From an uncultured Nitrospiraceae bacterium (GTDB lineage Bacteria > Nitrospirota > UBA9217): a DNA stretch of 58,026 bases. Below, in pieces: positions 14,583-50,823 of the stretch (its first letter is position 1; each line of letters starts with the position of its first letter). The position numbers were made by a program, and so were the translations under genes. The notes under the pieces were generated by a model. That model did not search any database. It was not told the DNA's origin and worked only from the letters and a program-made list of their open reading frames with translations. Where the stretch lies: positions 1 through 58,026 of the forward strand of contig CAYILT010000002.1 of the NCBI GenBank assembly GCA_964364055.1, written 5' to 3'.

Positions 14583-14763
14583 GGGAATGTGAGGTCTCCT
14601 GGCTTAGGACGGTTCGACATTGCTCACCGCCGTGAGCACATCGAACGGCTTCCTACTCGCCTGCCTTCCCATCCTTCAAAGGACAGTGGCCAGCCCGGCT
14701 TTCGTTTCCATCACAGTTGCGTGGCAGCGGGGGACTTGCACCCCCTTCCGCTTCATCATTCCC
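14583..14763 (-). promoter_or_regulatory. Cobalamin riboswitch (leader of btuB-tonB)
   Basis: Minus-strand RNA contains GGUGCAAGUCCCCCGCUGCC, GCCACUG, GGGAAGG and the B12 box AGCCAGGAGACCUC. P1 closes as GGAAUG.../...CAUUCC. Confidence 0.85.
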
Positions 14764-16228: not shown

Positions 16229-18093
16229 ACGTCATATCCTCTCGGTGTTATCAACAGGTTGTTCCATACAAATGTTTTCGAGTTGCCGATGATCACGGTC
16301 GTCTGCATATCAACGTCAGTGTCCTGCATGCTCGCAAGATCCGTTACGATGACCATCTCCTGCTCCCGCATCGCGCCCTTCACGATGCCAACGGCCGTTT
16401 TCACGTTCCGATGCTTCAGGATGATCTCCCGAGCCCGGTTGAGATGGCCAGCCCGGCCTTTGCTCCGGGGATTGTACAGGACGATGACGAAGTCCGCTGC
16501 CGCGGCCGCCTCAAGACGCTTCTCGATCATTTCCCAGGGCGTCAGGCGGTCCGACAGGCTGATGCAGGCAAAATCATGCATCAGAGGAGCTCCGAGCCGC
16601 GAGGCAGCGGCATTCAGCGCGGAAATGCCGGGGATGACCTCGACTTCGGGACAGAGCGGAGTGCGGAGTGCGGAGTGCGGAGTGCTTTGATTCTCCGACT
16701 CCCGACTCCTGACCCCTGACTCCTGATTTCTCAGCAATTCAAACACCAGCCCCGCCATGGCATAAACGCCGGGGTCGCCGCCGCTGATCACGGAAACGGT
16801 CTTTCCAGCCTGCGCCAGTTCCACTGCTTTCCGGCACCGGTCGACCTCCTGCGTCATACCGGTCGAGACGACATCCTTGTCCTTGAGAAGCTCTTTGATG
16901 AGATCGAGATAAGTACCGTAGCCCACAATGACATCAGACCTTTTGATTGCGTCCCTGGCAGCGGGAGTGATATGCTCCAGGCTCCCCGGCCCGGTGCCCA
17001 CGATATGGATTTTGCCTTTTTGCTGTAGTTTTTTTTCTCCTTCACTCCACACTCCGCACTCCGCACTCCGCACTGTTTTGAAAGCCGCCGCCACGGTCAC
17101 GTTTCCTTTCTTTTGCTTCTGCACCAGCAGGCTGTCCGCCCCTGCAGCAAGGAGCGCTGCCGGTTCCGCGACGCCGAATGCGCCTGTAGCCCTGAATACG
17201 ACATCGGATCTTTCAATCCCTTCCACGCCGTTCAGCTCGCCACTCCTGAACACGTGCAGCGGGAAGTCATATTTCCGGGCAAACGCCCTGAGTCCCGGCT
17301 CGCTGCCTTTGATATCGATCGTGGCGATACAGCCGACGGACAGGAACGACAGATTGCGGCTGTCGAGCGTGCTCTGCACCGCATCCTCGATCTCCTCCTG
17401 CGACGTGCCGCTGTTGCACCCGATGCCGACAACCAGATTTCTGGGCCTGAGATACAGCTGTCCCTTCACCCGGCAATCGCACAGATCAATGTTTTTTTTA
17501 TTAGTAATCAGGATGTCGGCATATTTCGGGTCAGCTGTCCTTAAAAACTCGTCGGGAAGTTTAATTTCTGACCCCTGCCCCCCGACCCCTGACCCCTGCT
17601 CTTCATACACCCGCAGCGCGCCGTTGTTCACGAACCGCGTTCCGATCAGCGGGAGCATTCCCCGGTCCTCGATGACCAGATCATGCTCCCGCGCCCAGAG
17701 ATCGAGCGCAGGGAGCCCGTTCACGTCCGACGCAGTGGTGATGACCGCCTCGCCGCCCAGGAATGCCGCGATCTTGCGCGTCAGTTCGTTCGCGCCGCCG
17801 AGGTGGCCCCCCGCAAGGCTTATTGCATGCTTCCCCGCCTCATCGAGCACGACGACCGCGGGATCGGTCCGCTTGTCCTTGAGCAGCGGCGCGATGGTCC
17901 GCACAACGATGCCTGAGGCCATGATGAACACCAGGGCCTCGCTCCTCCGCCACAGGGCTTCGACAACAGCCGGAGCGTATTTCGCGATCTCCGCGTCTGG
18001 TGACCAGGACTTCAGCCGCTCCGCCACCCTGAGACCATTATCGGTAATATAGATGATCGCAGTTCGCTTCACTCCGCACTCCGCACTCGCCAC
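16225..18093 (-). CDS. cbiGH: CbiG-CbiH fusion (cobalt-precorrin-5A hydrolase / cobalt-factor III C17-methyltransferase)
   Basis: N-terminal half is CbiG-like. C-terminal half starts KGKIHIVGTGPGSLEHITPAARDAIKRSDVIVGYGTYLDLI (tetrapyrrole methylase). Carries several repeat-encoded inserts. Confidence 0.85.
   Translation of the reverse strand: MASAECGVKRTAIIYITDNGLRVAERLKSWSPDAEIAKYAPAVVEALWRRSEALVFIMASGIVVRTIAPLLKDKRTDPAVVVLDEAGKHAISLAGGHLGGANELTRKIAAFLGGEAVITTASDVNGLPALDLWAREHDLVIEDRGMLPLIGTRFVNNGALRVYEEQGSGVGGQGSEIKLPDEFLRTADPKYADILITNKKNIDLCDCRVKGQLYLRPRNLVVGIGCNSGTSQEEIEDAVQSTLDSRNLSFLSVGCIATIDIKGSEPGLRAFARKYDFPLHVFRSGELNGVEGIERSDVVFRATGAFGVAEPAALLAAGADSLLVQKQKKGNVTVAAAFKTVRSAECGVWSEGEKKLQQKGKIHIVGTGPGSLEHITPAARDAIKRSDVIVGYGTYLDLIKELLKDKDVVSTGMTQEVDRCRKAVELAQAGKTVSVISGGDPGVYAMAGLVFELLRNQESGVRSRESENQSTPHSALRTPLCPEVEVIPGISALNAAASRLGAPLMHDFACISLSDRLTPWEMIEKRLEAAAAADFVIVLYNPRSKGRAGHLNRAREIILKHRNVKTAVGIVKGAMREQEMVIVTDLASMQDTDVDMQTTVIIGNSKTFVWNNLLITPRGYDV
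16656..16726. repeat. Heptanucleotide tracts: (GCGGAGT)x4, then CTCC[C/T]GA-type units
   Basis: Read directly. Encodes ESGVRSRESENQSTPHSALRTP inside CbiH. Confidence 0.85.
17042..17073. repeat. Heptanucleotide tract (CACTCCG), about 4.5 units
   Basis: Encodes RSAECGVWSEG in the CbiG-CbiH linker. Confidence 0.85.
17568..17599. repeat. Heptanucleotide tract (GACCCCT-type)
   Basis: CTGACCCCTGCCCCCCGACCCCTGACCCCTGC. Encodes QGSGVGGQGS. Confidence 0.8.
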
Positions 18094-28042: not shown

Positions 28043-28231
28043 GCAAGTTGCATTCGACAGCCGGAAGTCTATTCATGTTCTCCTGCCAGGCTCGTATTAT
28101 AGCAGGCCGGAAATCCGCAATATCGGTGCATAGTCTTTCATGTTTAATCTAATCCGCCGAACGCGCCGCGGAGCGCCTTGCTTAAACTTCGCAGCGCTTA
28201 TTCCCGGCTTGGTGTTAGGTCCAGGTCTTTC

Positions 28232-28681
28232 TTATCTTCCCCAGATTTCTTCAGGGTCTTCTATATTGGGATCATCATATCTTTCCATTCTCCCAAGCCA
28301 TTCCGGCATGCCATCCTTTATTCTGCATTTAAGTTGCTCAAGGGCTTCACTGGTTATTTTATTTGTTTCAAGCATAAACTGGTAAAATTTCGTCAAACTC
28401 GCGGCATTTGCTTTGATAGCTGCTTTGCTCGCCCACATCGCTTTTCGTATGAACCAATAGCCCAGAAACATGCCTATGCTGCCGACGCCCTCAGCGGCCT
28501 CAATGGTATCTTCATTTAAAAGGAACTCATTAATATAAAAATCGACGTTTGAAACATGCTTTTTTACGGTCGTACTTGAAAGCTTGCTGTCTGATAGCCA
28601 TTTTTGAAAGTGCTTTAATAAGAGCATGTTTTTTCCTCTGATTCTATTGCATTCCTTCTCATATTGTTCGTACGAACTCAT
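28232..28681 (-). CDS. Hypothetical protein
   Basis: 149-aa open frame in an AT-richer context. No family recognised. Confidence 0.4.
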   Translation of the reverse strand: MSSYEQYEKECNRIRGKNMLLLKHFQKWLSDSKLSSTTVKKHVSNVDFYINEFLLNEDTIEAAEGVGSIGMFLGYWFIRKAMWASKAAIKANAASLTKFYQFMLETNKITSEALEQLKCRIKDGMPEWLGRMERYDDPNIEDPEEIWGR

Positions 28682-29350
28682 ATTTTCCTCTCCTTACCGG
28701 CATAACGCCGCCGTGGGGAGCGCGTTTCACAGCGACCCTCACGACGCGCTTGTTAAGAATATTGCTTCTCTGGATATGGTATGCCCAGGTCTTTTGCAAT
28801 CAACTCAAAGCCTTTTTCATCTCTATATTCTTCGATATCCAGGCCGCTAGTGCGAACTTTCTGCCATGAAGAGCTTTTATCGTGGTGTTGTTTTATGTTC
28901 GAGTTTTTTCACGGACTTCCCCGGCCATTCCGAAAGCGGACATCCAGTGTTTTCGAAGTACTCTTGATGTCGGCTCCGACCCGGCATGACGGGGGAAAAA
29001 TATTAAAATACAAACACTACTTACCTTGCTTGTTGCTGGTATACTCCATTGCTTTCCCCGAAAGCTCCTCAACGCTTAAATTTTCTCAGAGCCCTTTTCT
29101 CCACTCCGTATAATCAAAGCACGTTAAAATCGAAACATACATTAGCGGTTCGGCGCGCTTGGGAAACACACCCTACGACTTCAATAATATATCGTAGGGA
29201 TCGTTCCCTGAACGGTCCGCAACGCTTCGTGATGTTTTATATTTACCTTGTCGCGGTACTATCCCGTCAGACGTCTTGAATGAAGCAGTTTATCAGACAA
29301 AATACGCTCCTGTAAATAAAATTCATCAACATTCACCGCAGCGTGCGCCG

Positions 29351-30742
29351 TCATTTGCCCTTCTCGCCTCTCACGATGAATACGGGATTCAGGGCGTTCA
29401 TCAGTTTTTTCCCCGCTACCGGCTTCGAACGCGAAACGGACACCTCGCATACGTCGGTCGTGAAACCACGTTGTTCGAGTGCGGCAACGCCGTCCCGGAG
29501 GGTTTCGAGCGTCGCGGCGTTGATCACGATGATCCCTGAACGCATCATCCCGCTCGCCAGTTCCACGATTGCCGCCAGCCTGCCGCCGCTGCCGCCGATA
29601 AAAACACGGTCCGGCGCGGGCAGGCCGGTCAGTTCCTCGGGCGCCGTCGCTTTCACGACCTCGATGTTCTTCACGCTGAACCGCCGCATGTTGTTGTTGA
29701 TGTGATTGACCTGATCTTCGTCCTTTTCCACGGCAAAGATCCGAAGACCGGGGAAAAGCCTCGCTGCCTCGATCGAGACCGAGCCGGAGCCCGCGCCGAT
29801 GTCCCAGAGCACGCCGCTCTGAGGAAGCTTCAACTTATGCAGCGTCACCGCCCGCACCTCATCTTTCGTGATCAGCCCGCGCGCATGGGACAGTTCTTCC
29901 TCTTTCAAGCCGAAACAGACCTCTCCTGGTCCCTGGACCCTGGCCCCTGGCCCCTGCCGTTGAATGATCACCACGTTCGGCTCGGCAAAGGTCATGCCTG
30001 CGGCCTCGTTGATCGTTCCCGTCCATACGCGCTCGTCAGGATATCCGAGTCGTTCGCAAACATGCATTATCATGCCGCCGGCAATCCCCCCTTGCCCCCC
30101 TTTGTCAAAGGGGGGTTGGGGGGATTTTACGATGCAGTTCAATAACTCTCCGGCAATTGCCGTCGGATTATTCACCCTGTCCGTGAGAATCGCAAGTTTG
30201 CGGTATTTTTCGAGCAGCCGGGGAATATCACCCGCTTCATAGGGCAGCTTTCGCCGCCTCGCGATATCCGGTCCGCCGTGCACGCTGATGCAGAACGCGT
30301 CGTCCCAGGGTTCGTTGATCCGGGCAAAGGCCTCCTGCATGCTCGACAGGTCGGGAATGATCTCGATCCGCTCCTTCCCGAACTCCTCGATCATGCGCCT
30401 TCCGATGCCGAAGAAGAAGGGATCGCCTGAGGCCAGGAGAACGAGAGAAGGCAGCTCGGATTGCGGAGCCTTCGACCCGAGCTCAGGCCGAGGGTTGCGG
30501 ATTGCGGATTGGGAAAACCATTCTTTGATATACGCTACAGTCTCCGGCACTTTATTGATGACCGTGATGCGTTCCTTGACCGCCTCGTATTCCTCATACC
30601 GCTTGAAGACATCAAAAAGCCGTGACGAAGCGAGGACCACGTCCGCCTTACGGACGATCTCCCGCGCCCGCCCTCCGAGCGGCCGGTATCCGATCCCGAC
30701 AAGAGTGAGTTTATTCGCTTTCGGCAATGAGCTCTCCTTCAT
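29351..30742 (-). CDS. cbiET: CbiE-CbiT fusion (cobalt-precorrin-7 C5-methyltransferase / cobalt-precorrin-6B C15-methyltransferase, decarboxylating)
   Basis: Start moved to MKESSLPKANKLTLVGIGYRP. C-terminal half has ITKDEVRAVTLHKLKLPQSGVLWDIGAGSGSVSIEAA (CbiT). Confidence 0.85.
   Translation of the reverse strand: MKESSLPKANKLTLVGIGYRPLGGRAREIVRKADVVLASSRLFDVFKRYEEYEAVKERITVINKVPETVAYIKEWFSQSAIRNPRPELGSKAPQSELPSLVLLASGDPFFFGIGRRMIEEFGKERIEIIPDLSSMQEAFARINEPWDDAFCISVHGGPDIARRRKLPYEAGDIPRLLEKYRKLAILTDRVNNPTAIAGELLNCIVKSPQPPFDKGGQGGIAGGMIMHVCERLGYPDERVWTGTINEAAGMTFAEPNVVIIQRQGPGARVQGPGEVCFGLKEEELSHARGLITKDEVRAVTLHKLKLPQSGVLWDIGAGSGSVSIEAARLFPGLRIFAVEKDEDQVNHINNNMRRFSVKNIEVVKATAPEELTGLPAPDRVFIGGSGGRLAAIVELASGMMRSGIIVINAATLETLRDGVAALEQRGFTTDVCEVSVSRSKPVAGKKLMNALNPVFIVRGEKGK
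29923..29958. repeat. Heptanucleotide tract (CCCTGG[N]-type) inside cbiET
   Basis: CTCCTGGTCCCTGGACCCTGGCCCCTGGCCCCTGCC. Encodes QGPGARVQGPGE. Confidence 0.8.
30083..30126. repeat. Nested palindromic element inside cbiET
   Basis: AATCCCCCC-TTG-CCCCCCTTTG-T-CAAAGGGGGG-TTG-GGGGGATT. Encodes KSPQPPFDKGGQGGIA. Confidence 0.75.
30455..30513. repeat. Composite 60-bp element (heptamer arms plus GAGCTC-centred core), inverted orientation, inside cbiET
   Basis: CGGATTGCGGAGCCTTCGACCCGAGCTCAGGCCGAGGGTTGCGGATTGCGGATT. Encodes IRNPRPELGSKAPQSEL. Confidence 0.9.
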
Positions 30743-31940
30743 AGGACACAAGATGGACCGAGACGGCGGTCCCCTTCGCCTCCCGTTCACAGTAGCTCCG
30801 CGCCGCGGAACAGACCTTTTTCAATGCGGAGTCCGGAGCGGGGAACGTCGAGCGGATGAAATCAAATATCTCCCGCGACGTATTGTACGATGCGTCCCCC
30901 GGCAAACCGATCCCGAGCCCGATCAGGAAATCCCTCGCGGCCTCCGCCTCCAGCGCGCCGTGGCGCACATGGGTCTGGGGCGTGGCCATGGCGATCTTGA
31001 TCATTTTTGCCCACTGGGCGCAGAGGTGCACCTTGCTGAACCCGTGTTTCGCAGCGTCGCGCAGCGAGAATTCCGTGTAGTCGCCCATCATGGCATAGGC
31101 CTCCACGGGCAGGCCGTACTTCCGCTGATGGGCTTTCTCCGACGTCCTGCCGGTGGATATCACGGCCTCGGTCAGACCGAGCGCCTTCGCCACATCGAAA
31201 GACGCCGTAATGGTCGCCGTCCAGGCCGCCTCGGAAAGCGGCCTCACGATTCCGGTGGTGCCGAGGATCGATATGCCGCCGACGATGCCGAGCCGATGAT
31301 TCAGGGTCTTTTTCGCCAGCTCTTCTCCGGCAGGAACGGAGATGGTGACTTCCAATTGCGGATTGCGGATTGCGGATTGCGGATTTGCTAAACCGAACTC
31401 AGAAACCGCTTCGCGCACCGCATCAGTAATCATCCTCCTCGGCACAGGATTAATCGCCGGTTCTCCCACGGGGATCGCGAGGCCCGGTTTGGTCACGGTC
31501 CCAACACCCTTTCCGCCACGGATTATTATTTCGGATTGCGAATTTAAATCCGCAATCCGCAATCCGAAATCCGCAATCAGAGAGGCTTCCGCCCTTATCT
31601 CCGCACCGTTCGTGATGTCCGGATCATCGCCCGCGTCCTTGATCACGGACGCCGTTGAAATCAGTTCGGAGTGGTGAGTTCGGAGTTCGGAGTGATGAAC
31701 TTTGAACTGCACCCTGCTGCCGTCCGGAAATGGTATTTCTACACTTTGCAGGAAGACGGCCCCCTCACCTCGTTCCTCTCCCTCGCTGGGGAGAGGATGA
31801 AAAACTCCCTCGCCCCTTGCGGGAGAGGGCTGGGGTGAGGGGGAAATCCGCAATAGAAGGCTCGTTGCCGCCTTTGCAGCCGCTGCCGCGCACGCGCCGG
31901 TGGTGTATCCGGACCGGAGATTCTTACTTTTCGATTCCAC
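30711..31940 (-). CDS. cbiD: Cobalt-precorrin-5B C1-methyltransferase
   Basis: LRSGYTTGACAAAAAKAA N-terminus. Several repeat-encoded inserts. Confidence 0.88.
   Translation of the reverse strand: MESKSKNLRSGYTTGACAAAAAKAATSLLLRISPSPQPSPARGEGVFHPLPSEGEERGEGAVFLQSVEIPFPDGSRVQFKVHHSELRTHHSELISTASVIKDAGDDPDITNGAEIRAEASLIADFGLRIADLNSQSEIIIRGGKGVGTVTKPGLAIPVGEPAINPVPRRMITDAVREAVSEFGLANPQSAIRNPQLEVTISVPAGEELAKKTLNHRLGIVGGISILGTTGIVRPLSEAAWTATITASFDVAKALGLTEAVISTGRTSEKAHQRKYGLPVEAYAMMGDYTEFSLRDAAKHGFSKVHLCAQWAKMIKIAMATPQTHVRHGALEAEAARDFLIGLGIGLPGDASYNTSREIFDFIRSTFPAPDSALKKVCSAARSYCEREAKGTAVSVHLVSYEGELIAESE
31355..31388. repeat. Heptanucleotide tract (ATTGCGG)x4+ inside cbiD
   Basis: Encodes NPQSAIRNPQ. 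Confidence 0.85.
31531..31578. repeat. Inverted heptamer tracts forming a palindrome inside cbiD
   Basis: CGGATTGCGAATTT|AAATCCGCAATCCG (one mismatch), then AATCCGAAATCCGCAATC. Encodes IADFGLRIADLNSQSE. Confidence 0.8.
31664..31698. repeat. Heptamer-type tract (GTTCGGA) inside cbiD
   Basis: Encodes HHSELRTHHSEL. Confidence 0.7.
31761..31842. repeat. Compound G/C-rich palindromic element inside cbiD
   Basis: Outer arms CCCCTCACC / GGTGAGGGG enclose two hairpins, CCTCTCCC..GGGGAGAGG and CTCCCTCGCC..GCGGGAGAG. Encodes SPSPQPSPARGEGVFHPLPSEGEERGEG. Confidence 0.75.
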
Positions 31941-35221: not shown

Positions 35222-35247
35222 TTTTTCTCCTTCTATCGAGGTTTTTT

Positions 35248-35398
35248 GGAATGAACGGTATTCCGGCTCAGGGCTCAAACCTACTTGCCCGTCTTCCCAT
35301 CATGATGGCACTCATGACAGTGACTTCGTATGGGCTTTCGTTCCCTTTACGGCTGCGGGACAGCATGGGGATTTCACCCATTTCCTCTCTTTCATTCC
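35248..35398 (-). promoter_or_regulatory. Cobalt-transport leader cobalamin riboswitch (cbiMNQO leader)
   Basis: Minus-strand RNA has GGUGAAAUCCCCAUGCUGUCCCGCAGCCGUAAAGGGAACG, GUCACUG, GGGAAGA and the B12 box AGCCGGAAUACCGU. Confidence 0.8.
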
Positions 35399-35515
35399 TT
35401 TCATGAACGTTCTCACATCAAAGACCTGATGATACATGATTACTATTGTGTTTTTTTATCCGCCACCTCCTTTTCCCTCCCCTGATAATGTGTCGTGTAT
35501 TCATTCGGCATCCCG

Positions 35516-36286: not shown

Positions 36287-36311
36287 AGTATTCTCCTTTA
36301 TTCGAGGTTTT

Positions 36312-36450
36312 GGGAATGAGAGGTCTTCCGGCTCAGGGCTGCCTACTCACCCGCCTTCCCATCATGGGACTCCATGACAGTGGCTTTTGCATCGGGTTTT
36401 CGTTCCCTTCACGGCTGCGTGACAGCAGGGGAGTTGCACCCCTTTCCGCT
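36312..36450 (-). promoter_or_regulatory. Cobalamin riboswitch (leader of the outer-membrane barrel gene)
   Basis: GGUGCAACUCCCCUGCUGUCACGCAGCCGUGAAGGGAACG, GCCACUG, GGGAAGG and the B12 box AGCCGGAAGACCUC. Confidence 0.8.
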
Positions 36451-36512
36451 TCATCCTTCCCGGTTTTTATTACACAACAACCTTATGCCGCAAAATCCAC
36501 TGTTGCACTATA

Positions 36513-39530: not shown

Positions 39531-40937
39531 TTATCTACCTTCGCTTATAAAGGCTGCGAAATTGGCCGCGATACGCCGGTTGCTGCCGAAGTGCACATGG
39601 ATGTAGCTCGCAAGGGTGCCTTTATATTTGAACCCCTCATCTGACAGATGGTTGCCCGACGCGTTCGTTACGGAATAGACATTCCCCTGCCCCCCGACCC
39701 CTGACCCCTGACCCCTGCCTTCCAGTATTTCCGAATAATGGAACTCATGGCCCCGGTACTTCTCACCCTTGCTCCCCAGGATACAGTGTTCGTTCAAGAC
39801 GATTTCCCGGTAGCCCAGGCGCGGTTTCCTCATCATCCGCGTTTCGAAGGGGAACACTCCTGCCATGCCAAAGAGCGTGTTGTCAAAGTCGCGAATGCCT
39901 CTCGAAAGATACATCAATCCGCCGCATTCCGCGTACAACGGTTTGCCTGCATCGACCCATGCGCGCACGGACTCACGCATGGAGCTATTGCCCGATAGCG
40001 CGGCTGCATGAAGCTCGGGATACCCGCCTCCGATATAAACACCGTCCGCTGCGCCGGGGATGGCCGGATCGACAAGAGGACTGAACCGGATGATCTCGGC
40101 GCCTGCATCGCGAAGCAGGTCCAGGTTGTCCTCATAGTAGAAACTGAATGCCCGGTCATAGGCTACGGCAATGCGAATTGCGGATTTCGGATTGCGGATT
40201 GCGGATTGCTTTTTTGCCTGCCTGTCCCATCCCCCGGTATCCAGCGTGGCCGATTCATAGACCATATCGATGTCGATGTGCTTCAGGATCGTGTCAGCAA
40301 GCCTATCTATATTCGCCTTGGTGAGGGGGTCCTCCTCTGCGATCATAAGCCCGAGATGCCGGTGCGGGATTTCAAGGTCCATCTCTCGCGGGAGATACCC
40401 CAGAACAGGCACCGTACGAACGCTGTCTCTCAGGCGTGCAAAATGGCTCTCCGAAGCAACGCGATTGAAAATGACGCCGGCGAACTTCAATCCGCAATCC
40501 GCAACCCTCGGCCTGAGCTCGGGTCGAAGGCTCCGCACTCCGAACTCGGTAAACCCCTTCACCATTGCCCCTGCGCTCTCTGCCATGCCGTAGGCATCGA
40601 CAACAAGCACAACAGGCGCCTGCAGAAGCACCGCCAGCGACGCCGTGCTTCGGTCGCCATCGTACATCCCCATGACGCCTTCGATCACCGCAAGATCGGC
40701 ATCTGCGGCATGCCTCCTGAAGCACCGGCGCACATAGTCCTGGCCGCACATCCACAGGTCCAGATTTCTGGACGGCCTGTCCACGACAAGCCGATGCAGG
40801 CCAGCATCGATGAAGTCCGGTCCTGCTTTGAAGGGCTGGACCACAAGCCCCTTCTTCCGCAGGGCCGCCATGATGCCGAGTGACACCGTTGTCTTGCCGC
40901 ACCCGCTGTGAGTCCCCGCGATGACTATCCCGCGCAT
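39531..40937 (-). CDS. cbiA: Cobyrinic acid a,c-diamide synthase
   Basis: MRGIVIAGTHSGCGKTTVSLGIMAAL; GATase part YAECGGLMYL. Three repeat-encoded inserts. Confidence 0.88.
   Translation of the reverse strand: MRGIVIAGTHSGCGKTTVSLGIMAALRKKGLVVQPFKAGPDFIDAGLHRLVVDRPSRNLDLWMCGQDYVRRCFRRHAADADLAVIEGVMGMYDGDRSTASLAVLLQAPVVLVVDAYGMAESAGAMVKGFTEFGVRSLRPELRPRVADCGLKFAGVIFNRVASESHFARLRDSVRTVPVLGYLPREMDLEIPHRHLGLMIAEEDPLTKANIDRLADTILKHIDIDMVYESATLDTGGWDRQAKKQSAIRNPKSAIRIAVAYDRAFSFYYEDNLDLLRDAGAEIIRFSPLVDPAIPGAADGVYIGGGYPELHAAALSGNSSMRESVRAWVDAGKPLYAECGGLMYLSRGIRDFDNTLFGMAGVFPFETRMMRKPRLGYREIVLNEHCILGSKGEKYRGHEFHYSEILEGRGQGSGVGGQGNVYSVTNASGNHLSDEGFKYKGTLASYIHVHFGSNRRIAANFAAFISEGR
39684..39719. repeat. 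Heptanucleotide tract (GACCCCT-type) inside cbiA
   Basis: Encodes GRGQGSGVGGQG. Confidence 0.8.
40171..40208. repeat. Heptanucleotide tract (ATTGCGG-type) inside cbiA
   Basis: Encodes KQSAIRNPKSAIRIA. Confidence 0.85.
40488..40549. repeat. Composite 60-bp element inside cbiA
   Basis: The core GCAACCCTCGGCCTGAGCTCGGGTCGAAGGCTCCGCACTCC is identical to both cobQ copies. Encodes RSLRPELRPRVADCGL. Confidence 0.9.
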
Positions 40938-41983: not shown

Positions 41984-42978
41984 GACATTCCCCGCGCAGC
42001 AATTGCCGCCCCGGCCAGGGCAGCCGCGATTATTGCGGAGACCTTCACCAGCGCCATGGCCTCGTCCGACGCTGGAAGATAATCTTCCCGGCAGGGATCG
42101 CCGATTACGGGTTTGTTGATCAACACGCCGCTGTACACGTTGGGACCGCCGAGCGTCACGCCGATCGCTCCGGCCATGGACGCCTCGGGTACGCCGCTGT
42201 TCGGACTGGGGTGTTTCCTGCCGTCGCGCGCCATGATCGCAAGCGACCTGCGCAAAGCCGCAACGCCCTTCGCCGCGTCCTTCACGCACGCGCTCAGGAA
42301 TGCGGCCACCGCGATGATCAGGCCCGTGAGCCGCGCAGGCAGGTAGTTCGCGGCATCATCGACCCGCGCCGCGGCCCAGCCGAAATAGCGATACCGGTCG
42401 CTCTTGTACCCCACCATGGAGTCGAGCGTGTTGATGGCTTTGTAGGCCATGGCAAGAGGAAGCCCCCCGAGGGCAAGATAGAAGAGCGGCGCGACAATCC
42501 CGTCGGAAAGGTTCTCGGCCAGCGTCTCGATCGTTGCCCTGAGCACGCCCTGCTCCGAAAGTTCGCCGGTGTCTCGGCCCACGATCATGCTCACGTGCTT
42601 CCGCGCCGACTCCAGACTTCCCTCTCTGATCGAAGATATCACGAGACCGGCCGACCGAAGGAGACCATGCGTGGCGATCGTTGTTGCCGTGAGCACGACC
42701 AGCGCCGCGGTCCCGGCAAGGACGGACACCTGCTCCGAAAGACGGTTCAGCAACAGCACGATGACGCCGGTAAGGAAATAGACCGGCGCCACGATCACAA
42801 TAACCAGCACGAAGCCGGCAGTCCGCTCAGCCGCGGGAGAAGCGACTGCGCTCCGGAGTACCCTCTCCATCGTGCTGATGGCGCTGCCGATGAACCTGAC
42901 CGGATGGGGCAGCCAGCGGGGATCTCCGATCAGGAGATCGAGCACGAACGCCAGCAGCAGGACCGTCGCGCTGATCAT
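41980..42978 (-). CDS. cbiB: Adenosylcobinamide-phosphate synthase
   Basis: LLIGDPRWLPHPVRFIGSAIS; polytopic membrane protein. Confidence 0.88.
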   Translation of the reverse strand: MISATVLLLAFVLDLLIGDPRWLPHPVRFIGSAISTMERVLRSAVASPAAERTAGFVLVIVIVAPVYFLTGVIVLLLNRLSEQVSVLAGTAALVVLTATTIATHGLLRSAGLVISSIREGSLESARKHVSMIVGRDTGELSEQGVLRATIETLAENLSDGIVAPLFYLALGGLPLAMAYKAINTLDSMVGYKSDRYRYFGWAAARVDDAANYLPARLTGLIIAVAAFLSACVKDAAKGVAALRRSLAIMARDGRKHPSPNSGVPEASMAGAIGVTLGGPNVYSGVLINKPVIGDPCREDYLPASDEAMALVKVSAIIAAALAGAAIAARGMS

Positions 42979-44642
42979 AGTTTCAGCATCTCCCGGACAA
43001 AATCCATATTCACATGCTCCCGTACGACCCTGGCCAGCCGGTCCAGGGCCTGCTCCTGGAACTCGCTGTACCGTAGCCCGCTCTTGCCGGGAGGAATCCC
43101 CTTCTTTTTTCTGACGTGATCGATGATGCCCCGTCGGAACAGATCGTTGTCGAAGATCCCGTGGAGATAGGTGCCCCAGCAGTTTTTGTTCATCGAGCCG
43201 TCAAGAACAAATGCGGAGTGCGGGTAGACATGACCCTCACCCCTGCCCCTCTCCCCTGGAGGGAGAGGGAAAAAGGGAGAGGGGGCTTTTTCAACGCGGA
43301 ATGCGGAATCAACAGCCGATCTTCTCACTCTGAACAAACCAATATCTCCGGTGCTTGCACCCATGTGAATTTCGTATCCTTTTAAAATATCCTCGCTCTT
43401 CCACTCCACACTCCGCAACCCTCGGCCTGAGCTCGGGTCGAAGGCTCCGCACTCCGCACTTCCCACGATCTCCGCCTCAACGCGGCAGGTCTTCTTTTCA
43501 CTCCCGAAAAGGGTGTCGATATTCAGGAGCCCGATGCCTTCGACGCTCCGATGAACGCTCTCGGTTCCCTGCGGATCGTCGATCCGTCTGCCGAGCATCT
43601 GATAACCGCCGCAGATGCCGATGATCTCCGTTCCCCGGTCATAGGCCCTCCGGATGCAATCAACGAGCCCCTTCTCCTTCAGGAGGAGCAGATCGGTGAC
43701 CGTGTTCTTCGATCCCGGCAGGATGACCAGGTCCGCGCTCTCGATCTCCGAAGGACTGTCTGAATACACAACCTCCGTATCCGGTTCGAGCGCAAGCGGA
43801 TCAAAATCAGTAAAGTTCGAAATATACTTCAGCCTCACGATGACGATTTTTACAGTCTTTCCCTCCGCACTCCGCACTCCGCAACCCTCGGCCTGAGCTC
43901 GGGTCGAAGGCTCCGCACTCCGTGCAAGCGCCAAACCATCCTCCTCCGGAAGCCCCAGGTCCGTGATATAAGGCAGCACGCCGATCACGGGCCTGCCCGC
44001 TTTCTTCCTGATCATGTCGAGGCCGGGATCAAGGATGGTCTTGTCGCCCCGGAACTTGTTGATGATGAATGCCTTGATATGCCTGCTGTCCCGGCCGAGC
44101 AGTTTGACCGTGCCGTAGAGCGACGCGAACACGCCGCCCTTATCGATGTCCGCCACGAGCAGGACCGGCGCCTTCGCGTGCTTCGCCATGGCCATGTTCA
44201 CGATGTCCACATCCAGGAGGTTGATCTCCGCGGGGCTGCCCGCGCCTTCAAGAACGATCAGGTCATGCTGTTCCGCGAGCCGGGCGTAGGACGCGGTCAC
44301 CGCCTTCCATGCGTGGTCGCGGAACGCATAGTATTCCCGCGCCTTCATCGTGGCATGGACCTTGCCGTGGATAATGACCTGTGACCCGCCGTTGCCGGAC
44401 ACCTTGAGCAGCACGGGATTCATGTCGTTCAGAGAATCTACCCGGGCCGCCCGCGCCTGGAGCGCCTGCGCCCTGCCGATCTCTCCGCCCTCGGCGGTGA
44501 TGGAGGAGTTCAGCGCCATGTTCTGCGCCTTGAACGGCGCGACGCTGATCCCCTGATCGCTGAAAATACGACAAAGCGCCGCGACGACCAGGCTCTTGCC
44601 CGCGCCGGACCCCGTGCCCTGTATCATTAACGCCTTAGCCAC
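42975..44642 (-). CDS. cobQ: Cobyric acid synthase
   Basis: Probable GTG start giving (M)AKALMIQGTGSGAGKS. GATase part ICGGYQML. Three repeat-encoded inserts. Confidence 0.88.
   Translation of the reverse strand: MAKALMIQGTGSGAGKSLVVAALCRIFSDQGISVAPFKAQNMALNSSITAEGGEIGRAQALQARAARVDSLNDMNPVLLKVSGNGGSQVIIHGKVHATMKAREYYAFRDHAWKAVTASYARLAEQHDLIVLEGAGSPAEINLLDVDIVNMAMAKHAKAPVLLVADIDKGGVFASLYGTVKLLGRDSRHIKAFIINKFRGDKTILDPGLDMIRKKAGRPVIGVLPYITDLGLPEEDGLALARSAEPSTRAQAEGCGVRSAEGKTVKIVIVRLKYISNFTDFDPLALEPDTEVVYSDSPSEIESADLVILPGSKNTVTDLLLLKEKGLVDCIRRAYDRGTEIIGICGGYQMLGRRIDDPQGTESVHRSVEGIGLLNIDTLFGSEKKTCRVEAEIVGSAECGAFDPSSGRGLRSVEWKSEDILKGYEIHMGASTGDIGLFRVRRSAVDSAFRVEKAPSPFFPLPPGERGRGEGHVYPHSAFVLDGSMNKNCWGTYLHGIFDNDLFRRGIIDHVRKKKGIPPGKSGLRYSEFQEQALDRLARVVREHVNMDFVREMLKL
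43234..43285. repeat. G/C-rich palindromic element inside cobQ
   Basis: CCCTCACCCCTGCCCCTCTCCCCTGGAGGGAGAGGG...GGGAGAGGGGG. Encodes PSPFFPLPPGERGRGEGH. Confidence 0.7.
43402..43460. repeat. Composite 60-bp element inside cobQ (copy 2)
   Basis: Same 41-nt core. Encodes ECGAFDPSSGRGLRSVEW. Confidence 0.9.
43863..43922. repeat. Composite 60-bp element inside cobQ (copy 1)
   Basis: Same 41-nt core. Encodes SAEPSTRAQAEGCGVRSAE. Confidence 0.9.
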
Positions 44643-44730
44643 TCGACCCCCTGAGCGGAGACAACGGCACGGCAATCCCGTCCCCCGTGAATCGTCCGCA
44701 TGGTTTCGCACAGTTGATGCTGATTCACCA

Positions 44731-45831
44731 TCAGGCATCCTTCTCCGATACCCCTGCCTCGCCGAAGGTGGCCATCTCGCGGTATATCTTGACTCCCGCC
44801 TCGATCATCTGCATTGCCAGCGCCGCGCCGGTACCCTCGCCGAGCCGGAGCGAGAAATCGAGGATCGGCACCAGCCCCATCTTCCCGAGCATGGCCCGCT
44901 GCCCCTGTTCGACCGAATAATGGGCCGAGAACATATAATCCACCGTCGCAGGTTCGATCTCATAAGCGATCATGGCCCCGGCTGTGGAAATGAACCCGTC
45001 CACGATCACGGGGATCCGCTCCGCCGCCGCGCCCAGGATGAGGCCCGCAATGCCGCCGATCTCCGCTCCGCCCACCTTGGCGAGCACGTCAATAGGGTCC
45101 TTCGCATCAGGCCGGTTCAGCGCGATGCTCTCCTCAATGACCGCGACCTTCCGCTGGAGGCCTGCGTCGTCGATCCCCGTGCCCCTGCCCGTCACGTTAT
45201 TCACCGGCGCGCCGGTCAGCACCGATGCGATGGCGCTCGACGGCGTGGTGTTGCCGATGCCCATGTCGCCGGTGCCGAAAATGCGGTAGCCCTTCTGTGC
45301 GTATTCCCGGGCGAGGTCGATCCCGACTTGGAGGCACTGCTCCGCCTCGGCCCGCGTCATGGCGGGACCAATGCGCATGTTCTTCGTGCCGCGCACGACC
45401 TTTCGCGACATCAACCCGGGCGTCTCGCCGAAATCGTGATCCACACCGATGTCCACCACCACGACCTCGGCCCCGGCGTGGCGCGCCAGCACATTGATCC
45501 CCGCGCCGCCGCGCAGGAAGTTGAACACCATCTGCGGCGTGACCTCCTTGGGGAACGCTGAGACGCCGTCCGCGGTGACGCCGTGGTCTCCCACAAACGT
45601 GAAAACGACCTTTTTGTCCAGCGTCGGCATCGTGTCCCCGGTGATCGCCACGATCCTGCGCGCAAACTCCTCGAGCCTGCCGAGGCTTCCCAGCGGCTTG
45701 GTCAGGTTGTCCAGCCGCTTCTGCGCAATCTCGTAGAGCGATGATTGCACGGGTTGTATCCTGCCGCGAATGTCGCTGAACGCCTGCGCCCCGGAAGCGG
45801 TTTCTTTACCAGCTGTTCTTTCCTTATTCAT
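44731..45831 (-). CDS. cobT: Nicotinate-nucleotide:dimethylbenzimidazole phosphoribosyltransferase
   Basis: [18 protein letters not shown]...GDMGIGNTT. Confidence 0.9.
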
Positions 45832-46057: not shown

Positions 46058-47368
46058 TTATGCCTTTCCGCTCAATTGCAGGTCTTCGGAAAAAAGCTTT
46101 GCAGCTCCTTTCGCGGCGCAGAAGCTCCCGCACATGGTGCAGGAATCTTCATGCTCGGGCATGCGGCTTGCGCGGACCGCCTTCGCCTCTTCCGGATAGA
46201 GCGCGAGCTTGAACTGCTTTTCCCAATTGAGGTCCCGGCGCGCTTTGCTGATCTCCATGTCGCGCTGTCTTCCCTTCTCCGGATATTTGTTCATGTCGCC
46301 GATATAGGCGGCGATCTTGGCCGCCTGCACGCCCTGTCGCACATCGTCCTCATTCGGCAGAGCGAGATGTTCCGCAGGCGTGATATAGCATATCAGGTCA
46401 GCGCCGAAGCGGCTCGACTGCGCCGCGCCGATGGCCGCGGTGATATGGTCGAACCCCGGCGCAACGTCCGTGGTTATGGGGCCGAGCATGTAGTAGGGTG
46501 CGCCGCCACTCATCCGTTTCTGGAGCTGGATGTTTCCCTTGATCTCGTCCAGGGGCACGTGTCCCGGCCCCTCGACCAGCATCTGGCATCCCATTTCCCT
46601 GCCGATCTCGGCCAGTTCGCAATTGATTATCAGCTCCTGGATCTGCGCCCGGTCCGAGGAATCGTGGATCGCCCCTGCCCTGAGGCCGTTGCCGAGCGAC
46701 AGGACCACATCGTATTTTTTCAGGATCGAGACGACGCGGTCGAATTTCTCGTATAAAGGATTCTCCCGATTATTGGCAAGCATCCAGGCGACCATGCTCA
46801 CCCCGCCCTTGCTCACCAGGCCGCCGTAGCGGTATCCCTGCTTTCTTAAGCGTTCAATGGTATAGAGGTTGATGCCGCAGTGAATTGCCATGAAGGCGAT
46901 TCCGTCTACGCACTGCTGTTCGATCAGGTCGAAAAGCATTTCTTCATCGAGCTTGTTCGGGTCACCGTACTTCCGGCCGGCCTCACAAAAGGCCTGGTAC
47001 AGGGGGACGTTCCCGACGGGAAGTTCCACGGCCGCGATCACTTCGCGCCGCACCCGGTCCAGGTCGCCGCCCACCGAGAGTTCCATGAGTGTGTCAGCGC
47101 CCGCGGCTTCGGCAATTTTCGCTTTCCTTACCTCCGCGGCGTAGTCGACAATGTCCGACGACGTGCCGATCGAAGCATTCACCTTCGTTCGCAGCCCTTT
47201 GCCGACGCCGACCGCTTTCGGCTGCCTAATCGTGTTTCCGGGAATAACGATTTTCCCCTCTGCTACCATGGTTCGTACATACTCAGTTGATACATCCTCC
47301 GCAGCAGCGACTGTCTCCATCTGCGGTGTAACAAACCCTTTTCGGGCATGCTCTATTTGTGTTGTCAT
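46058..47368 (-). CDS. bzaF: ThiC-family radical SAM enzyme, probable 5-hydroxybenzimidazole synthase
   Basis: 436-aa ThiC homologue with a C-terminal CTMCGSFC. Preceded by cobalamin (not TPP) riboswitches and followed by cobT. Confidence 0.7.
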   Translation of the reverse strand: MTTQIEHARKGFVTPQMETVAAAEDVSTEYVRTMVAEGKIVIPGNTIRQPKAVGVGKGLRTKVNASIGTSSDIVDYAAEVRKAKIAEAAGADTLMELSVGGDLDRVRREVIAAVELPVGNVPLYQAFCEAGRKYGDPNKLDEEMLFDLIEQQCVDGIAFMAIHCGINLYTIERLRKQGYRYGGLVSKGGVSMVAWMLANNRENPLYEKFDRVVSILKKYDVVLSLGNGLRAGAIHDSSDRAQIQELIINCELAEIGREMGCQMLVEGPGHVPLDEIKGNIQLQKRMSGGAPYYMLGPITTDVAPGFDHITAAIGAAQSSRFGADLICYITPAEHLALPNEDDVRQGVQAAKIAAYIGDMNKYPEKGRQRDMEISKARRDLNWEKQFKLALYPEEAKAVRASRMPEHEDSCTMCGSFCAAKGAAKLFSEDLQLSGKA

Positions 47369-47483
47369 AGATAAGCTCCTTATGATTGTGCAATATTGTA
47401 ACCGCTACGCCTTCAAAACTGCGACCTATGACAAAACCGATATTTTTTTCTTTACCATGTTTTTTCTCCTTCCGCGTGCATAT

Positions 47484-47626
47484 GGGAATAAGACGTCTCC
47501 TGGCTTAGGACAACCTACTCGCCGGCCTTCCCACCCCGATCAGGGCAGTGGCACTCGATCAGCTTTCGTTTCCATCACAGTTGCGCGACAGCAGGGGAGT
47601 CGCACCCCTTTCCGCTTTCTTATTCC
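47484..47626 (-). promoter_or_regulatory. Cobalamin riboswitch, proximal member of a tandem pair (bzaF leader)
   Basis: GGAAUAAGAAAGCGGAAAGGGGUGCGACUCCCCUGCUGUCGCGCAACUGU, GCCACUG, GGGAAGG and the B12 box AGCCAGGAGACGUC. Confidence 0.8.
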
Positions 47627-47640
47627 ACCGTACTATAAAA

Positions 47641-47680
47641 TAAATAAATCCCCGGTCTTCTACTCAAGACCGAGGATTAA
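47641..47680 (-). terminator. Intrinsic terminator (expression platform of the distal riboswitch)
   Basis: AAUCCUCGGUCUU-GAGUAG-AAGACCGGGGAUU: a 13-bp stem followed by UAUUUAUUUUAU. Confidence 0.65.
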
Positions 47681-47691
47681 AGAAACGCCTT

Positions 47692-47893
47692 AACCCACAC
47701 ATGATCTTAACGCCGAAGAATGTGCGAAATTGTTCAAGCAGGTCTTCTGGCTCTCCCCCCCCTTTACCGGCCTTCCCAGCCAGAACACCGGCCAGTGGCG
47801 CAATTTGTAGTAAAGAGTTCGACCCCATAGTGCAGGGTCAGGATTACAGCGGCGGGTCCGCTCCCGATTTTAACGGGATTCCCTTAGCTTGAA
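47692..47893 (-). promoter_or_regulatory. Cobalamin riboswitch, distal member of the tandem pair
   Basis: AAGGGAAUCCCGUUAAAAUCGGGAGCGGACCCGCCGCUGUAA, GCCACUGG, GGGAAGG and the B12 box AGCCAGAAGACCUGC. Its 3' part is near-identical to the btuF riboswitch. Confidence 0.8.
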
Positions 47894-47980
47894 TGTGAAA
47901 CTGTTATATATGCTTTTTTTATACCACGTGCGTCATGCAAAGTCAATTCACTTTCTTTGGGGGCCTCATAGGTATAATTA

Positions 47981-49486
47981 TCAGGATTTATAAAATATTC
48001 CATCTATCTCGTTTTCCGTTTCTCGAACCAGAGAGGCTATTCGCTCCTTGTCAAATCGCCCTCCTCCTTCTAGAGCTGTCAGGCCATCCTCAAAGACCTT
48101 TACGATTAAATGGTTCACCTTTACATATCTTTCCAGCATACCGGGTGGCTCAATATCCTTACCGCTCCAGGTTCCGTCCATTCTCCCAAAGAGGATATTG
48201 GTAATCCGCCTCATGATATCGGCAAGGTCGGCGACTTCAGGTTTTTTAAAATAGGCTGTCCCTTCATAGGAAGAAGAACGTTGAAGTTCAAGACGTTTTT
48301 CTTTTTTGAGATTATGATATGCCTGTGTTCCTTCCAGAACAATCTGGTGGTGGTAAAGCACGTTTGCGGTAACAGGGAGATTTTTCAGCAGAGCATTCCT
48401 CTTCAGGAATTCAAAATTAATGCGCACATCCCCCAGCGAGGAATCCGGCTCGAACATGATGAACCCGACATTCGGCTCCACGCCATGTTTTCGGAGGATA
48501 GTGAGCGCCCTCTCATTCTGTGCCACCGTGGTCATTTTATTCATCCGTTTGAGCGACTCGTCTTTCCCGCTTTCTAACCCGATGAGAATGTGGCGGAGAC
48601 CGGCATCCACCAGAACGCCAATGGTTCCCTCATGGATATCATTGACCCTTCCTTCGATGCCGAACCGGATGCTTCTGGGCTTCAGAAGTGATGCAATTCG
48701 AAGGGCCCTGTCCTGGCCTTCCTGACCGGGACCGAAAAAGTTGGGGTCAGTAAAATAGAAATCCCTCAAACCTTTTTTCGAAATGATTGCGTCAATTTCC
48801 TCGGCGATATTCTCAGGGCTCCTCCCTCGCCAGGGGCTCCCGGGCCCATAAAAAGAATTAACGTAACAGAAGGTGCATCTCCCGTAGCATCCGCGGCTTC
48901 CCAGCAGATTCACCTCGGGCAGCCGGTACATCGCCTCAGTGCGGACAGGAAAAGGAAGGCAATCGAGGTTCTCGACGGGTTTCTGTTTTATATACTTGAT
49001 GCCGCCAGCTCCGTCTCTTCGCGCAAAACCGGGGACGCAAGGCGTGTCATGCCCGAATGACGCGGACCCGGCAAGGTCTGCAAACGGCCCTTCAGGCTCT
49101 CCGATAATGACCGAATTGATGGCGTGGCAGCTTGTCAGGATATCTTCAAAAGAAATCGTGGCATAAAAACCGTATGCAATTATAAAAGAGGCTTGCTCTT
49201 TTCTCTTCACCCCTTCGAGAAAATCGAAGAGAGCGAGATCCTTCCGCCAGTGGTAGACGATATGCACTCCGAGAATATCCGGCTTCACGGCATTCACCCT
49301 GTCCGCGAGCTCACTATAGGAAAGTCTGTCCAGATAACCTTCCACGATCTCGACCTCATGTCCTTTTCCTTTCAGCATTCCGGCCGCATAACCGCTCAGA
49401 AGACATGAGGAGAGGGGGGTGTTCGCAATATCATTGCACCGTTCAGGAGTAACGCTGCGCGGATGTTCCAGTAGCAGTATCTTCAT
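47981..49486 (-). CDS. bzaE: B12-binding radical SAM methyltransferase (BzaE-like by position)
   Basis: Start moved to MKILLLEH. N-terminal cobalamin-binding domain and CYGRCTFC radical SAM motif. ATGA overlap with the upstream gene. Confidence 0.6.
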   Translation of the reverse strand: MKILLLEHPRSVTPERCNDIANTPLSSCLLSGYAAGMLKGKGHEVEIVEGYLDRLSYSELADRVNAVKPDILGVHIVYHWRKDLALFDFLEGVKRKEQASFIIAYGFYATISFEDILTSCHAINSVIIGEPEGPFADLAGSASFGHDTPCVPGFARRDGAGGIKYIKQKPVENLDCLPFPVRTEAMYRLPEVNLLGSRGCYGRCTFCYVNSFYGPGSPWRGRSPENIAEEIDAIISKKGLRDFYFTDPNFFGPGQEGQDRALRIASLLKPRSIRFGIEGRVNDIHEGTIGVLVDAGLRHILIGLESGKDESLKRMNKMTTVAQNERALTILRKHGVEPNVGFIMFEPDSSLGDVRINFEFLKRNALLKNLPVTANVLYHHQIVLEGTQAYHNLKKEKRLELQRSSSYEGTAYFKKPEVADLADIMRRITNILFGRMDGTWSGKDIEPPGMLERYVKVNHLIVKVFEDGLTALEGGGRFDKERIASLVRETENEIDGIFYKS

Positions 49487-50823
49487 GTGGCTGCCCCGAC
49501 TTCCTGCCACATGAACACGTTTTTGGAGAGATGCAGAGCTTCCAGGCGGTACCTGAAGGCATCGAACGGTCTCGGGTTATAGTAGGTCGGATAAAGAAGA
49601 TCGGTATCCGGCCCTATGATTCCACCCGCTCTGGCCAGCGCTTCCATGCGTGTTCCCGGCAAAATTCTTATATTATTCAACACGACGGTACCGAGATTTT
49701 TCTTCCTGCTATGCTGATCATAGATCTTCTCTAGAAAGCGAAATCCCTTATCGCAGGTTTTTTCCGTTTCACCCGGAGCATTCACCATGAAGTGGTAAAC
49801 GCTCATGACGTCGGTTCTTGCGGCGAGTTCGGCGGCTTTCAGAATATCGCTTTCATTGAGCCTTTTGTCGAGCACATCAAGGGCTTCCTGGCACAGACCG
49901 TCAGGAGAAAATGAGAAACACTCACATCCCGCTTTTTCAAAGAGGGCTGCGTTTTTTTCGTTAAAATGATCTTCCCTCATAAAGCCATCCCATTTGAGCT
50001 TCAGTTTTCTCCGGAGGATTTCATGACAGATATTTTCAAGGTGGTCACTGGGGAAATTCACGATCGGATCGGTAAAGTGAAAACGTTCAATGCCGTATTC
50101 CTTATGCAAGGACTCCAGCTCATCCACGGCGTCACGCGGCGGCCGGCAGCGTAGCTGCCTCCCCTGTAAGGCGGGATAAACGCAGTACGCGCAATGAAAA
50201 GGACAGCCGCGCTTTGTTTCGATCCCCAGGGAAGGCACATAATTATTTATCTTTAAGTAGCGGGTAGGGTCCAGCAGGTTCCTGCTCGGTCGCGCGTAAT
50301 GAACCATATCAACGCATTCAGCGGGAGCGTCGATCGTCACTCCATTCCTCGTGCGCCTGCACAGCCCTTTTATGAGAGGCGGGTTTTCAAGAGAAGCGAT
50401 GAGTAGCGGCAAGGATGTTTCCGCTTCTCCTATAATGCCGTAATGAAGCTCAGGCGCCTCGCGCATCAACCGTTCGGGAAAAAGAGAAAAAGCCGTGCCG
50501 CCGGCGATAATCCATGATTTCGGCATGACAGCGGCAACAAGTCTGGCGGTAACCAGGAACGGGGGAATGAGTGAACTGGTCTTGTTTGCAAGGGGATCTA
50601 TGTTCCGCAATGATAACCCCACGACATCCGGTCTGAAGATAAGAAGCCTGTTCTTCACGGCGCCGAAGGGATCCGGCTCGATATTCATATCGATGATTTC
50701 GACCTCATAGCCGCGGTCCTGAAGGGAACCGGCCAGGATGACGATCCCAATGGGGTAGACTCTTTCTTGCGATACCCCCTCTACGGAAAGTGTCTGTATG
50801 AATAGGACCCGCATGCTGTTCAC
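49483..50823 (-). CDS. bzaD: B12-binding radical SAM methyltransferase (BzaD-like by position)
   Basis: N-terminal B12-binding domain, CPFHCAYC motif. 4-bp overlaps on both sides. Confidence 0.6.
   Translation of the reverse strand: MNSMRVLFIQTLSVEGVSQERVYPIGIVILAGSLQDRGYEVEIIDMNIEPDPFGAVKNRLLIFRPDVVGLSLRNIDPLANKTSSLIPPFLVTARLVAAVMPKSWIIAGGTAFSLFPERLMREAPELHYGIIGEAETSLPLLIASLENPPLIKGLCRRTRNGVTIDAPAECVDMVHYARPSRNLLDPTRYLKINNYVPSLGIETKRGCPFHCAYCVYPALQGRQLRCRPPRDAVDELESLHKEYGIERFHFTDPIVNFPSDHLENICHEILRRKLKLKWDGFMREDHFNEKNAALFEKAGCECFSFSPDGLCQEALDVLDKRLNESDILKAAELAARTDVMSVYHFMVNAPGETEKTCDKGFRFLEKIYDQHSRKKNLGTVVLNNIRILPGTRMEALARAGGIIGPDTDLLYPTYYNPRPFDAFRYRLEALHLSKNVFMWQEVGAAT

Follow-up and report, generated by a model that had tools for sequence, protein, structure and literature searches.

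A 27-nucleotide palindromic insert in heptamer arrays of cobalamin genes: a probable very small mobile repeat in an uncultured Nitrospirota bacterium

The window considered here, a stretch of 58,026 nt from an uncultured Nitrospiraceae bacterium, holds a B12 gene cluster in which three enzymes, a CbiE-CbiT fusion, a cobyrinate a,c-diamide synthase and a cobyric acid synthase, are interrupted by the same short sequence (Table 1). A string of 38 nt, which reads GCGGAGCCTTCGACCCGAGCTCAGGCCGAGGGTTGCGG on the plus strand at cbiET, occurs in the window in four exact copies and in none with one to three mismatches, and dinucleotide shuffles of the window returned no 38-nt copy at all. The host genes all lie on the minus strand; the cbiET copy alone is antisense to its gene, the other three being sense. 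The preliminary description of this locus had recognised the cbiET copy as inverted with respect to three other exact copies and as flanked by GCGGATT heptamers (left GGATTGCGGA, right TTGCGGATTGCGGATT), and exact matching bears this out with one correction of wording: the string it quoted as the shared core is the plus strand here, and it is the other copies that carry the reverse complement. Its statement that the host gene is read through the element from the opposite strand also holds, in that the minus-strand ORF stays open across the insert, where it reads ...FSQSAIRNPRPELGSKAPQSELPSLVLLASGDP... (also given as ...SQSAIRNPRPELGSKAPQSELPS... and ...AIRNPRPELGSKAPQSELPS), with NPRPELGSKAPQ as the peptide across the insertion. 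The likely start of cbiET lies at 30727 and gives a product of 458 aa, the length also of P0001, and homologues align on either side of the insert.

Table 1. Repeat copies, array halves, host genes and other mapped elements of the window.
Feature	Position	Strand	Remarks
38-nt string, copy 1	30463-30500	+	inside cbiET, antisense to the gene
38-nt string, copy 2 (exact)	40499-40536	-	CbiA/CobB gene, sense, read as SLRPELRPRVA
38-nt string, copy 3 (exact)	43413-43450	-	CobQ gene, sense, read as GAFDPSSGRGL
38-nt string, copy 4 (exact)	43879-43916	-	CobQ gene, sense, read as AEPSTRAQAEGC
Putative inserted 27-nt unit CCTTCGACCCGAGCTCAGGCCGAGGGT	30469-30495	+	antisense to cbiET, would encode PRPELGSKA
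Register GCC...GGG of the 27-nt unit	30468-30494	+	cbiET site
Left half of host heptamer array (GCGGATT units; gene sense AATCCGC)	30455-30468	+	homologues without core read SQSAIRNPQSA
Right half of host heptamer array (TGCGGATTGCGGATTGGG)	30496-30513	+	period 7, 100% match
cbiET host ORF	29351-30790	-	Pfam TP_methylase and Methyltransf_4: CbiE-CbiT fusion, precorrin-6Y methyltransferase/decarboxylase
Cobyrinate a,c-diamide synthase (CbiA/CobB-type amidotransferase)	39531-40937	-	Pfam; carries copy 2
Cobyric acid synthase CobQ	42975-44738	-	Pfam; carries copies 3 and 4
Heptamer arrays, examples	16656-16726, 17043-17074, 17568-17598, 29925-29956, 31355-31385, 31547-31578, 39684-39717, 54536-54568
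Cobalamin riboswitches (six)	14594-14749, 35238-35430, 36301-36502, 47477-47660, 47720-47907, 55173-55361	-	Rfam

The stretch that is identical in all four window copies, at 38 nt, is longer than the piece that appears to have been inserted. In an excision test, 27 nt were removed at seven alternative registers from 11 heptamer-embedded copies of the genome collection, and the register CCTTCGACCCGAGCTCAGGCCGAGGGT (CCTTCG...GGGT) restored the 7-nt periodicity of the surrounding array best in 8.5 of the 11. Repeated on 15 independent copies from JGI metagenomes, the test found the same register outright best in ten and tied for best in two more, with one copy scoring 21/21. As judged from these comparisons, the true unit is the 27-nt CCTTCGACCCGAGCTCAGGCCGAGGGT, or nine codons, rather than the 38-nt string, and some of the array flank may have been copied along with it in the window. 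The 27-mer is an imperfect palindrome centred on GAGCTC, with 20 of 26 positions self-complementary. Of the 11 genome copies, ten have AG^T as their insertion junction and one has AG^C, the units of the surrounding arrays varying lineage by lineage (GCGGAGT, CAAAGTT, ACCAGTT, AAAAGTC, CAAGCTA), and the 27-mer sits near the middle of arrays of standard length. The orientation of the core relative to the array strand is constant. Read in the sense of the gene, the array is AATCCGC (SAIRNPQ) in cbiET, as against GCGGAGT (SAECGVRS) in CobQ; the cbiET copy is inverted because, relative to the gene, its array is flipped with respect to those of CobQ and CbiA, and the inversion is, to go by these array strands, a property of the landing site and not of the core.

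Relatives of the window hold the same sites in both empty and filled form. An alignment of CbiET from the window with 34 Nitrospirota homologues contains three states at this position: some homologues, P0010 and P0013 among them, have no repeat; most have a stretch derived from heptamers, SQSAIRNP/QSALPS; and in the window and P0003 that stretch is interrupted at the slash by exactly nine residues, RPELGSKAP. In DNA, the locus L120, labelled p_Nitrospirota c_UBA9217, reads CCGCAA/TCCGCAA at the cbiET site, exactly 27 nt fewer than the window, with its AATCCGC array continuous; L122 is without the array, L121 carries the core, and L117 carries it as far as the fetched sequence reaches. The cbiET genes of the window and L121 share all 27 nt of the core (27/27) and have 72% identity in the remainder; the L120 gene, which has no core, stands at 75%. 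L117 and L118 are syntenic with the window at 85-87% identity over 5.2 kb. Both lack exactly 27 nt at the second CobQ site, where the GCGGAGT array is continuous; at the first, L118 again lacks exactly 27 nt from an uninterrupted GCGGAGT array, and the homologue P0123 reads ARSAEC-GVRS. The protein gaps at empty sites are exactly nine residues, and the relatives with empty cbiET or CobQ sites have 75-87% nucleotide identity to the window. The number of heptamer units around filled and empty sites is the same in the window and its relatives, and no target duplication beyond the array period was detected on comparing them. In CobQ a degenerate form of the array can still be made out in homologues whose identity falls to 63-75%, with the core in the window alone; the array is therefore old and the core recent. 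In this way four insertions have entered three enzymes of one B12 gene cluster, at least three of the four after the split from relatives that are 85-87% identical. The CbiA site (40485-40540) shows three fillings among three close relatives: a heptamer array with the core in the window, a heptamer array only in L117, and an element of the PLxKGG type with inverted heptamers in L118.

In the enzyme, the cbiET insert would amount to nine extra amino acids in a loop, the intact frame suggesting that it is translated. An AlphaFold model of CbiET (mean pLDDT 80) places it in coil between a helix (60-77) and a strand (95-100), at a pLDDT of about 55, and in the same model the values also fall below 50 at the other two places in the protein that are filled by repeats (residues 203-214 and 260-267); sequence searches of the PDB gave no coverage of the insert regions. 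Each of the four window copies is read in a frame of its own, as PRPELGSKA (cbiET, antisense), LRPELRPR (CbiA), AFDPSSGRG (CobQ) and PSTRAQAEG (CobQ), so that it is the nucleotides and not the peptide that are conserved. Across loci, all five open frames of the 27-mer are used. Since the four window copies give four unrelated peptides, the inserted peptide can probably be regarded as a neutral passenger.

Beyond the window, the inner 21-mer of the core was found, among the matches listed, in more than 115 stretches of a species-representative genome set, the phyla among the matches listed being Nitrospirota, Thermodesulfobacteriota, Bdellovibrionota, Methylomirabilota, Verrucomicrobiota, Chloroflexota and Planctomycetota, together with lineages of the candidate phyla radiation (CPR). 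The part common to the phyla is the 27-mer, of which the fetched loci hold 111 exact copies, and its flanks are lineage-specific, being either heptamer arrays or larger nested palindromes. Heptamer-embedded copies lie mainly in genes (11 of 15 in the JGI set), and other copies are nested in intergenic palindromes. Pfam confirmed aconitase, GlmU, DNA polymerase I (CPR), GltX (Dehalococcoidia), a SpoU methylase (CPR) and NifEN as hosts. Variants of the core at position 9 occur in only two stretches of a 596-Gb genome collection, against more than 115 that are canonical, and degenerate copies are rare in the fetched loci, a sample that exact-match searching biases in favour of undiverged copies. 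The 38-mer was absent from JGI metagenome contigs and the 27-mer from IMG/VR viral contigs, and a plasmid search returned only a diverged copy, on pAQ6 of Picosynechococcus. That copy (L116; Picosynechococcus sp. PCC 7002 plasmid pAQ6, 65112-65139), with three mismatches in 27, is nested in a larger palindrome between two convergent genes and, of the matches found, it alone comes from a cultured and fully annotated replicon. Related cores have the form CCTTCGAC...GCTCAGG..CGA. That the 27-mer should be identical from phylum to phylum and so very seldom decayed calls for explanation: either the copies are young, with fast turnover and frequent horizontal spread, or only the exact sequence is propagated or kept, as by a trans-acting factor that accepts no other.

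We consider it probable that the feature in cbiET is one copy of a very small mobile insertion repeat which entered a heptamer array that was there before it. By comparison with the homologues, the AATCCGC/GCGGATT array already occupied a disordered surface loop in the CbiE half of the protein, where most Nitrospirota homologues have it and some have none. The 27-nt unit was added inside the array at AG^T, with no detectable target duplication and in an orientation fixed to the array strand; with the cbiET array running opposite in the sense of the gene, the core is read there from the other strand. The enzyme would gain PRPELGSKA in its loop because 27 nt make nine codons and the frame used has no stop, and copies landing in the single TGA frame or in intolerant places would presumably be lost. 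As to how the unit moves, our guess is that some enzyme whose gene lies elsewhere may copy it in trans, recognising in single-stranded DNA both the hairpin and AG^T, for which an HUH/Y1-type enzyme would be the closest precedent; the precise gain of 27 nt, the AG^T junction, the fixed orientation, the lack of duplication and the nesting recall, by analogy only, the hairpin elements that HUH/Y1 enzymes move as single strands.

The search for such an enzyme gave no transposase among the ORFs scanned in the window, and no mobilising gene for the 27-mer emerged when all ORFs near 130 cores were clustered in a guilt-by-association analysis. ABC transporters and response regulators turned up among the clusters, as did an IS91-type Y2 transposase, at six loci of which two Bdellovibrionota MAGs contribute at least four, and a Y1_Tnp family, at three loci. 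The Y1_Tnp (IS200-like) loci, L137 6352-7163, L015 1433-2741 and L006 4675-6316, belong to three lineages, and in all three a core lies 200-650 nt upstream of the gene in the same relative orientation. The family was nevertheless rejected as evidence for such an enzyme: each gene has its own, different flanking terminal inverted repeats, and among the 80 best relatives only the query locus itself has a core within 3 kb, the other 79 having none. A bolder claim, which we hold to be possible and yet doubtful, is that the 27-nt sequence is an actively spreading mobile element, among the smallest known, moving between at least eight phyla including CPR and inserting in fixed orientation at AG^T in heptanucleotide arrays, which would be either safe landing pads in essential genes or the footprints of its own earlier visits. 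If true, transposition would have a route for which no enzyme is known, and proteins would have a general source of insertions in their loops.

The alternative that fares best, though an unlikely one, is that no dedicated enzyme is involved and the core passes from one heptamer array to another by gene conversion or template switching, or, in a variant, that the arrays are themselves 7-bp target duplications built up by repeated insertion and excision. The 38 identical nucleotides of the four window copies, which include GCGGA and TTGCGG even where the array is GCGGAGT and not GCGGATT, are what exchange between arrays would leave, and conversion could explain that identity within the window; the position of the core near the middle of standard-length arrays suits both versions. 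However, the same 27-mer is found in arrays of unrelated units, inside non-heptamer palindromes and, where there is no array, directly in GltX, so that homology of the flanks is not the general route. Equal numbers of heptamer units at filled and empty sites, moreover, fit the footprint variant only if the core was lost precisely in every relative.

Slightly less probable again is that the 27-mer is a functional signal under purifying selection, such as a binding site for a protein on DNA or an RNA hairpin affecting translation or mRNA decay, which has been recruited repeatedly. Its identity across many phyla, the very small number of degenerate copies and its complete preservation at the cbiET site of L121, within a gene that has diverged around it, would all be expected of such a signal. 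Against this, close relatives do without the 27-mer at the same sites with nothing else changed, and the copies keep no consistent position relative to the starts or ends of genes and occur in either sense and in any frame. The evidence from structure points the same way: a hairpin of the 27-mer does appear in the folds, but its stability is not higher than that of shuffled sequence in three of four folds (z-scores -0.4 to -2.1), a covariation scan at one stem position found two variants only, neither of them compensated, and an Rfam scan of the core produced chance-level matches only and no structured RNA family.

It is improbable, to a further degree, that selection has moulded the element for life in coding regions by keeping both its strands free of stops, as the preliminary description had proposed in judging its openness unlikely by chance and a sign of selection for coding neutrality. 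The observation behind that proposal is correct: five of the six frames are stop-free in the 27-mer, the 38-mer and the 59-nt composite alike, the sole stop in each being a TGA in one antisense frame; moreover, the length is divisible by three, and real genes use every one of the five open frames. Yet, tested on this single family, the idea finds no support: for the composite, five or more frames are open in 26% of mononucleotide shuffles, in 68% of dinucleotide ones and in 26% of 59-nt segments drawn at random from the window, and 92-94% of random cases have an open frame on each strand; for a G+C-rich sequence such as this, openness on both strands is the chance expectation. Divisibility by three has a prior of one in three. 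Nor was enrichment within genes seen, most genome copies lying outside long ORFs (about a quarter of 122 copies are in ORFs of at least 200 codons), the heptamer arrays of the window falling inside ORFs at the rate of ORF coverage (18 of 21, against 84%), and the identical 27-mer being present in lineages where it is mainly intergenic. Window arrays with a stop on one strand are found only in genes on the opposite strand. The pattern of arrays and copies in genes is one of filtering and not of enrichment, and the copies we observe would be open because of such filtering rather than through adaptation of the element; copies survive in genes because the unit is 27 nt, or nine codons, and its target array already lies in a tolerant loop. 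Finally, that the copies are artefacts of assembly or binning, the repeat having been wrongly joined into genes, accords with the many copies at contig ends, as expected of repeats that break assemblies, but is scarcely credible for an insert that is in frame, has homologous protein on both sides, measures exactly 27 nt against empty sites and recurs at one and the same position of cbiET in three assemblies made independently, namely the window, L117 (ENA) and L121 (NCBI).

Taken as a mobile insertion, the 27-mer most resembles the small dispersed repeats (SDR) of cyanobacteria and the palindromic elements of Rickettsia. The SDR of Nostoc punctiforme and other cyanobacteria are reportedly nearly identical, dispersed sequences of 21-27 nt, some of them hairpin-forming, and are said to lie typically inside tandem heptanucleotide repeats or nested in one another and to be present or absent at matching sites in relatives. 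We know of no transposase for them. The 27-nt unit, with four exact copies in the window and 111 in the fetched loci, matches this account as a dispersed, near-identical sequence of 21-27 nt; it too lies inside heptamer arrays, whose 7-nt periodicity its excision restores, or nested in larger palindromes, and it too is present or absent at orthologous sites in relatives. It differs in that its host is a Nitrospirota bacterium and not a cyanobacterium and that the same 27-mer is found in many phyla, the comparison being with the described traits of SDR, and in that heptamer-embedded 27-mers lie mostly in protein-coding genes, which are apparently read through. SDR of Nostoc are cited in a paper on REP sequences (PMC3116915). 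The Rickettsia palindromic elements (RPE) are likewise found in frame in unrelated housekeeping genes, the added peptide being tolerated by the fold, and are about 100-150 bp long, confined to Rickettsia and marked by one conserved peptide per family (PMC10969869). The 27-mer shares with them its insertion in frame in unrelated protein genes; in contrast, its unit is 27 nt, is read in five frames and gives four peptides from four window copies, and it targets heptamer arrays and crosses phyla.

Other short repeats are less alike. REP sequences (REPIN-RAYT) are highly repeated, short imperfect palindromes without terminal inverted repeats or target duplications, presumed to be moved as single-stranded hairpins by RAYT (Y1 HUH) transposases; they are extragenic and species-specific, usually form inverted doublets and flank a RAYT gene (PMC3116915). 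The 27-mer is a short imperfect palindrome of similar size, whereas its four window copies are all single and intragenic, and it flanks no Y1 (RAYT) gene, the test for Y1 linkage having been negative. Measured against MITEs, which have terminal inverted repeats and target-site duplications, span 50-500 bp and derive from IS, the unit of 27 nt is too short and shows no duplication in excess of the array period, nor did any parent IS for it come to light. As for the arrays, in many bacteria the long simple repeats are most commonly heptamers (PMC4679880), and in Geobacter metallireducens arrays of four or five heptamers (GGACCGG; MTYCTGA) occupy 49 and 16 sites within and between genes, where they have been treated as possible regulatory sites and no inserted core was reported (PMC2700814); the CTTCTGA and CCCCTGA arrays of the window are of the same size. 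The combination of an SDR-like anatomy with RPE-like translation and spread across phyla appears to be new, no report of it having been found and the core strings being absent from the literature searched.

These insertions suggest that a protein-coding gene can absorb a selfish or semi-selfish repeat of 27 nt harmlessly if a tolerant repeat tract already exists in a loop, and that such tracts turn over rapidly between close relatives. Inserts of this kind inflate and vary protein lengths, break metagenome assemblies and create low-complexity peptides that recur in databases (SAIRNPQ, PRPELGSK, AFDPSSGRG).

The window has further repeats and features of its own. Heptamer arrays occur at 21 sites and are of near-constant size, about 31-33 nt or 4.4-4.6 units, with unit types AATCCGC, ACTCCGC, CCCCTGA, CTTCTGA and CCTGGCC and with both orientations represented within CbiD; the array at 39697-39720 is a gain of 24 nt relative to L117 and L118. 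The segment directly downstream of cbiET (28200-29350) has few ORFs and a G+C content of 0.43-0.46, against 0.56, and contained no tRNA and no Rfam match. Genes for a ThiC-like radical SAM protein, a radical SAM protein, a B12-binding radical SAM protein and an O-methyltransferase-DUF2284 fusion adjoin CobT at 46058-52373, a group that presumably corresponds to an anaerobic benzimidazole (bza-type) lower-ligand cluster, and two of the six cobalamin riboswitches stand in tandem upstream of the ThiC-like gene. A second small nested family, of C-run/G-run palindromes, lies at 43224-43292 (CobQ), 31755-31844 (CbiD) and 30074-30127 (CbiET) and is read as PSPFFPLPPGERGRGEG, SPSPQPSPARGEG...EERGEG and PPFDKGGQGG; its 69-nt CobQ copy sits inside a heptamer array and is shared by the window with L117, L118 being without it.
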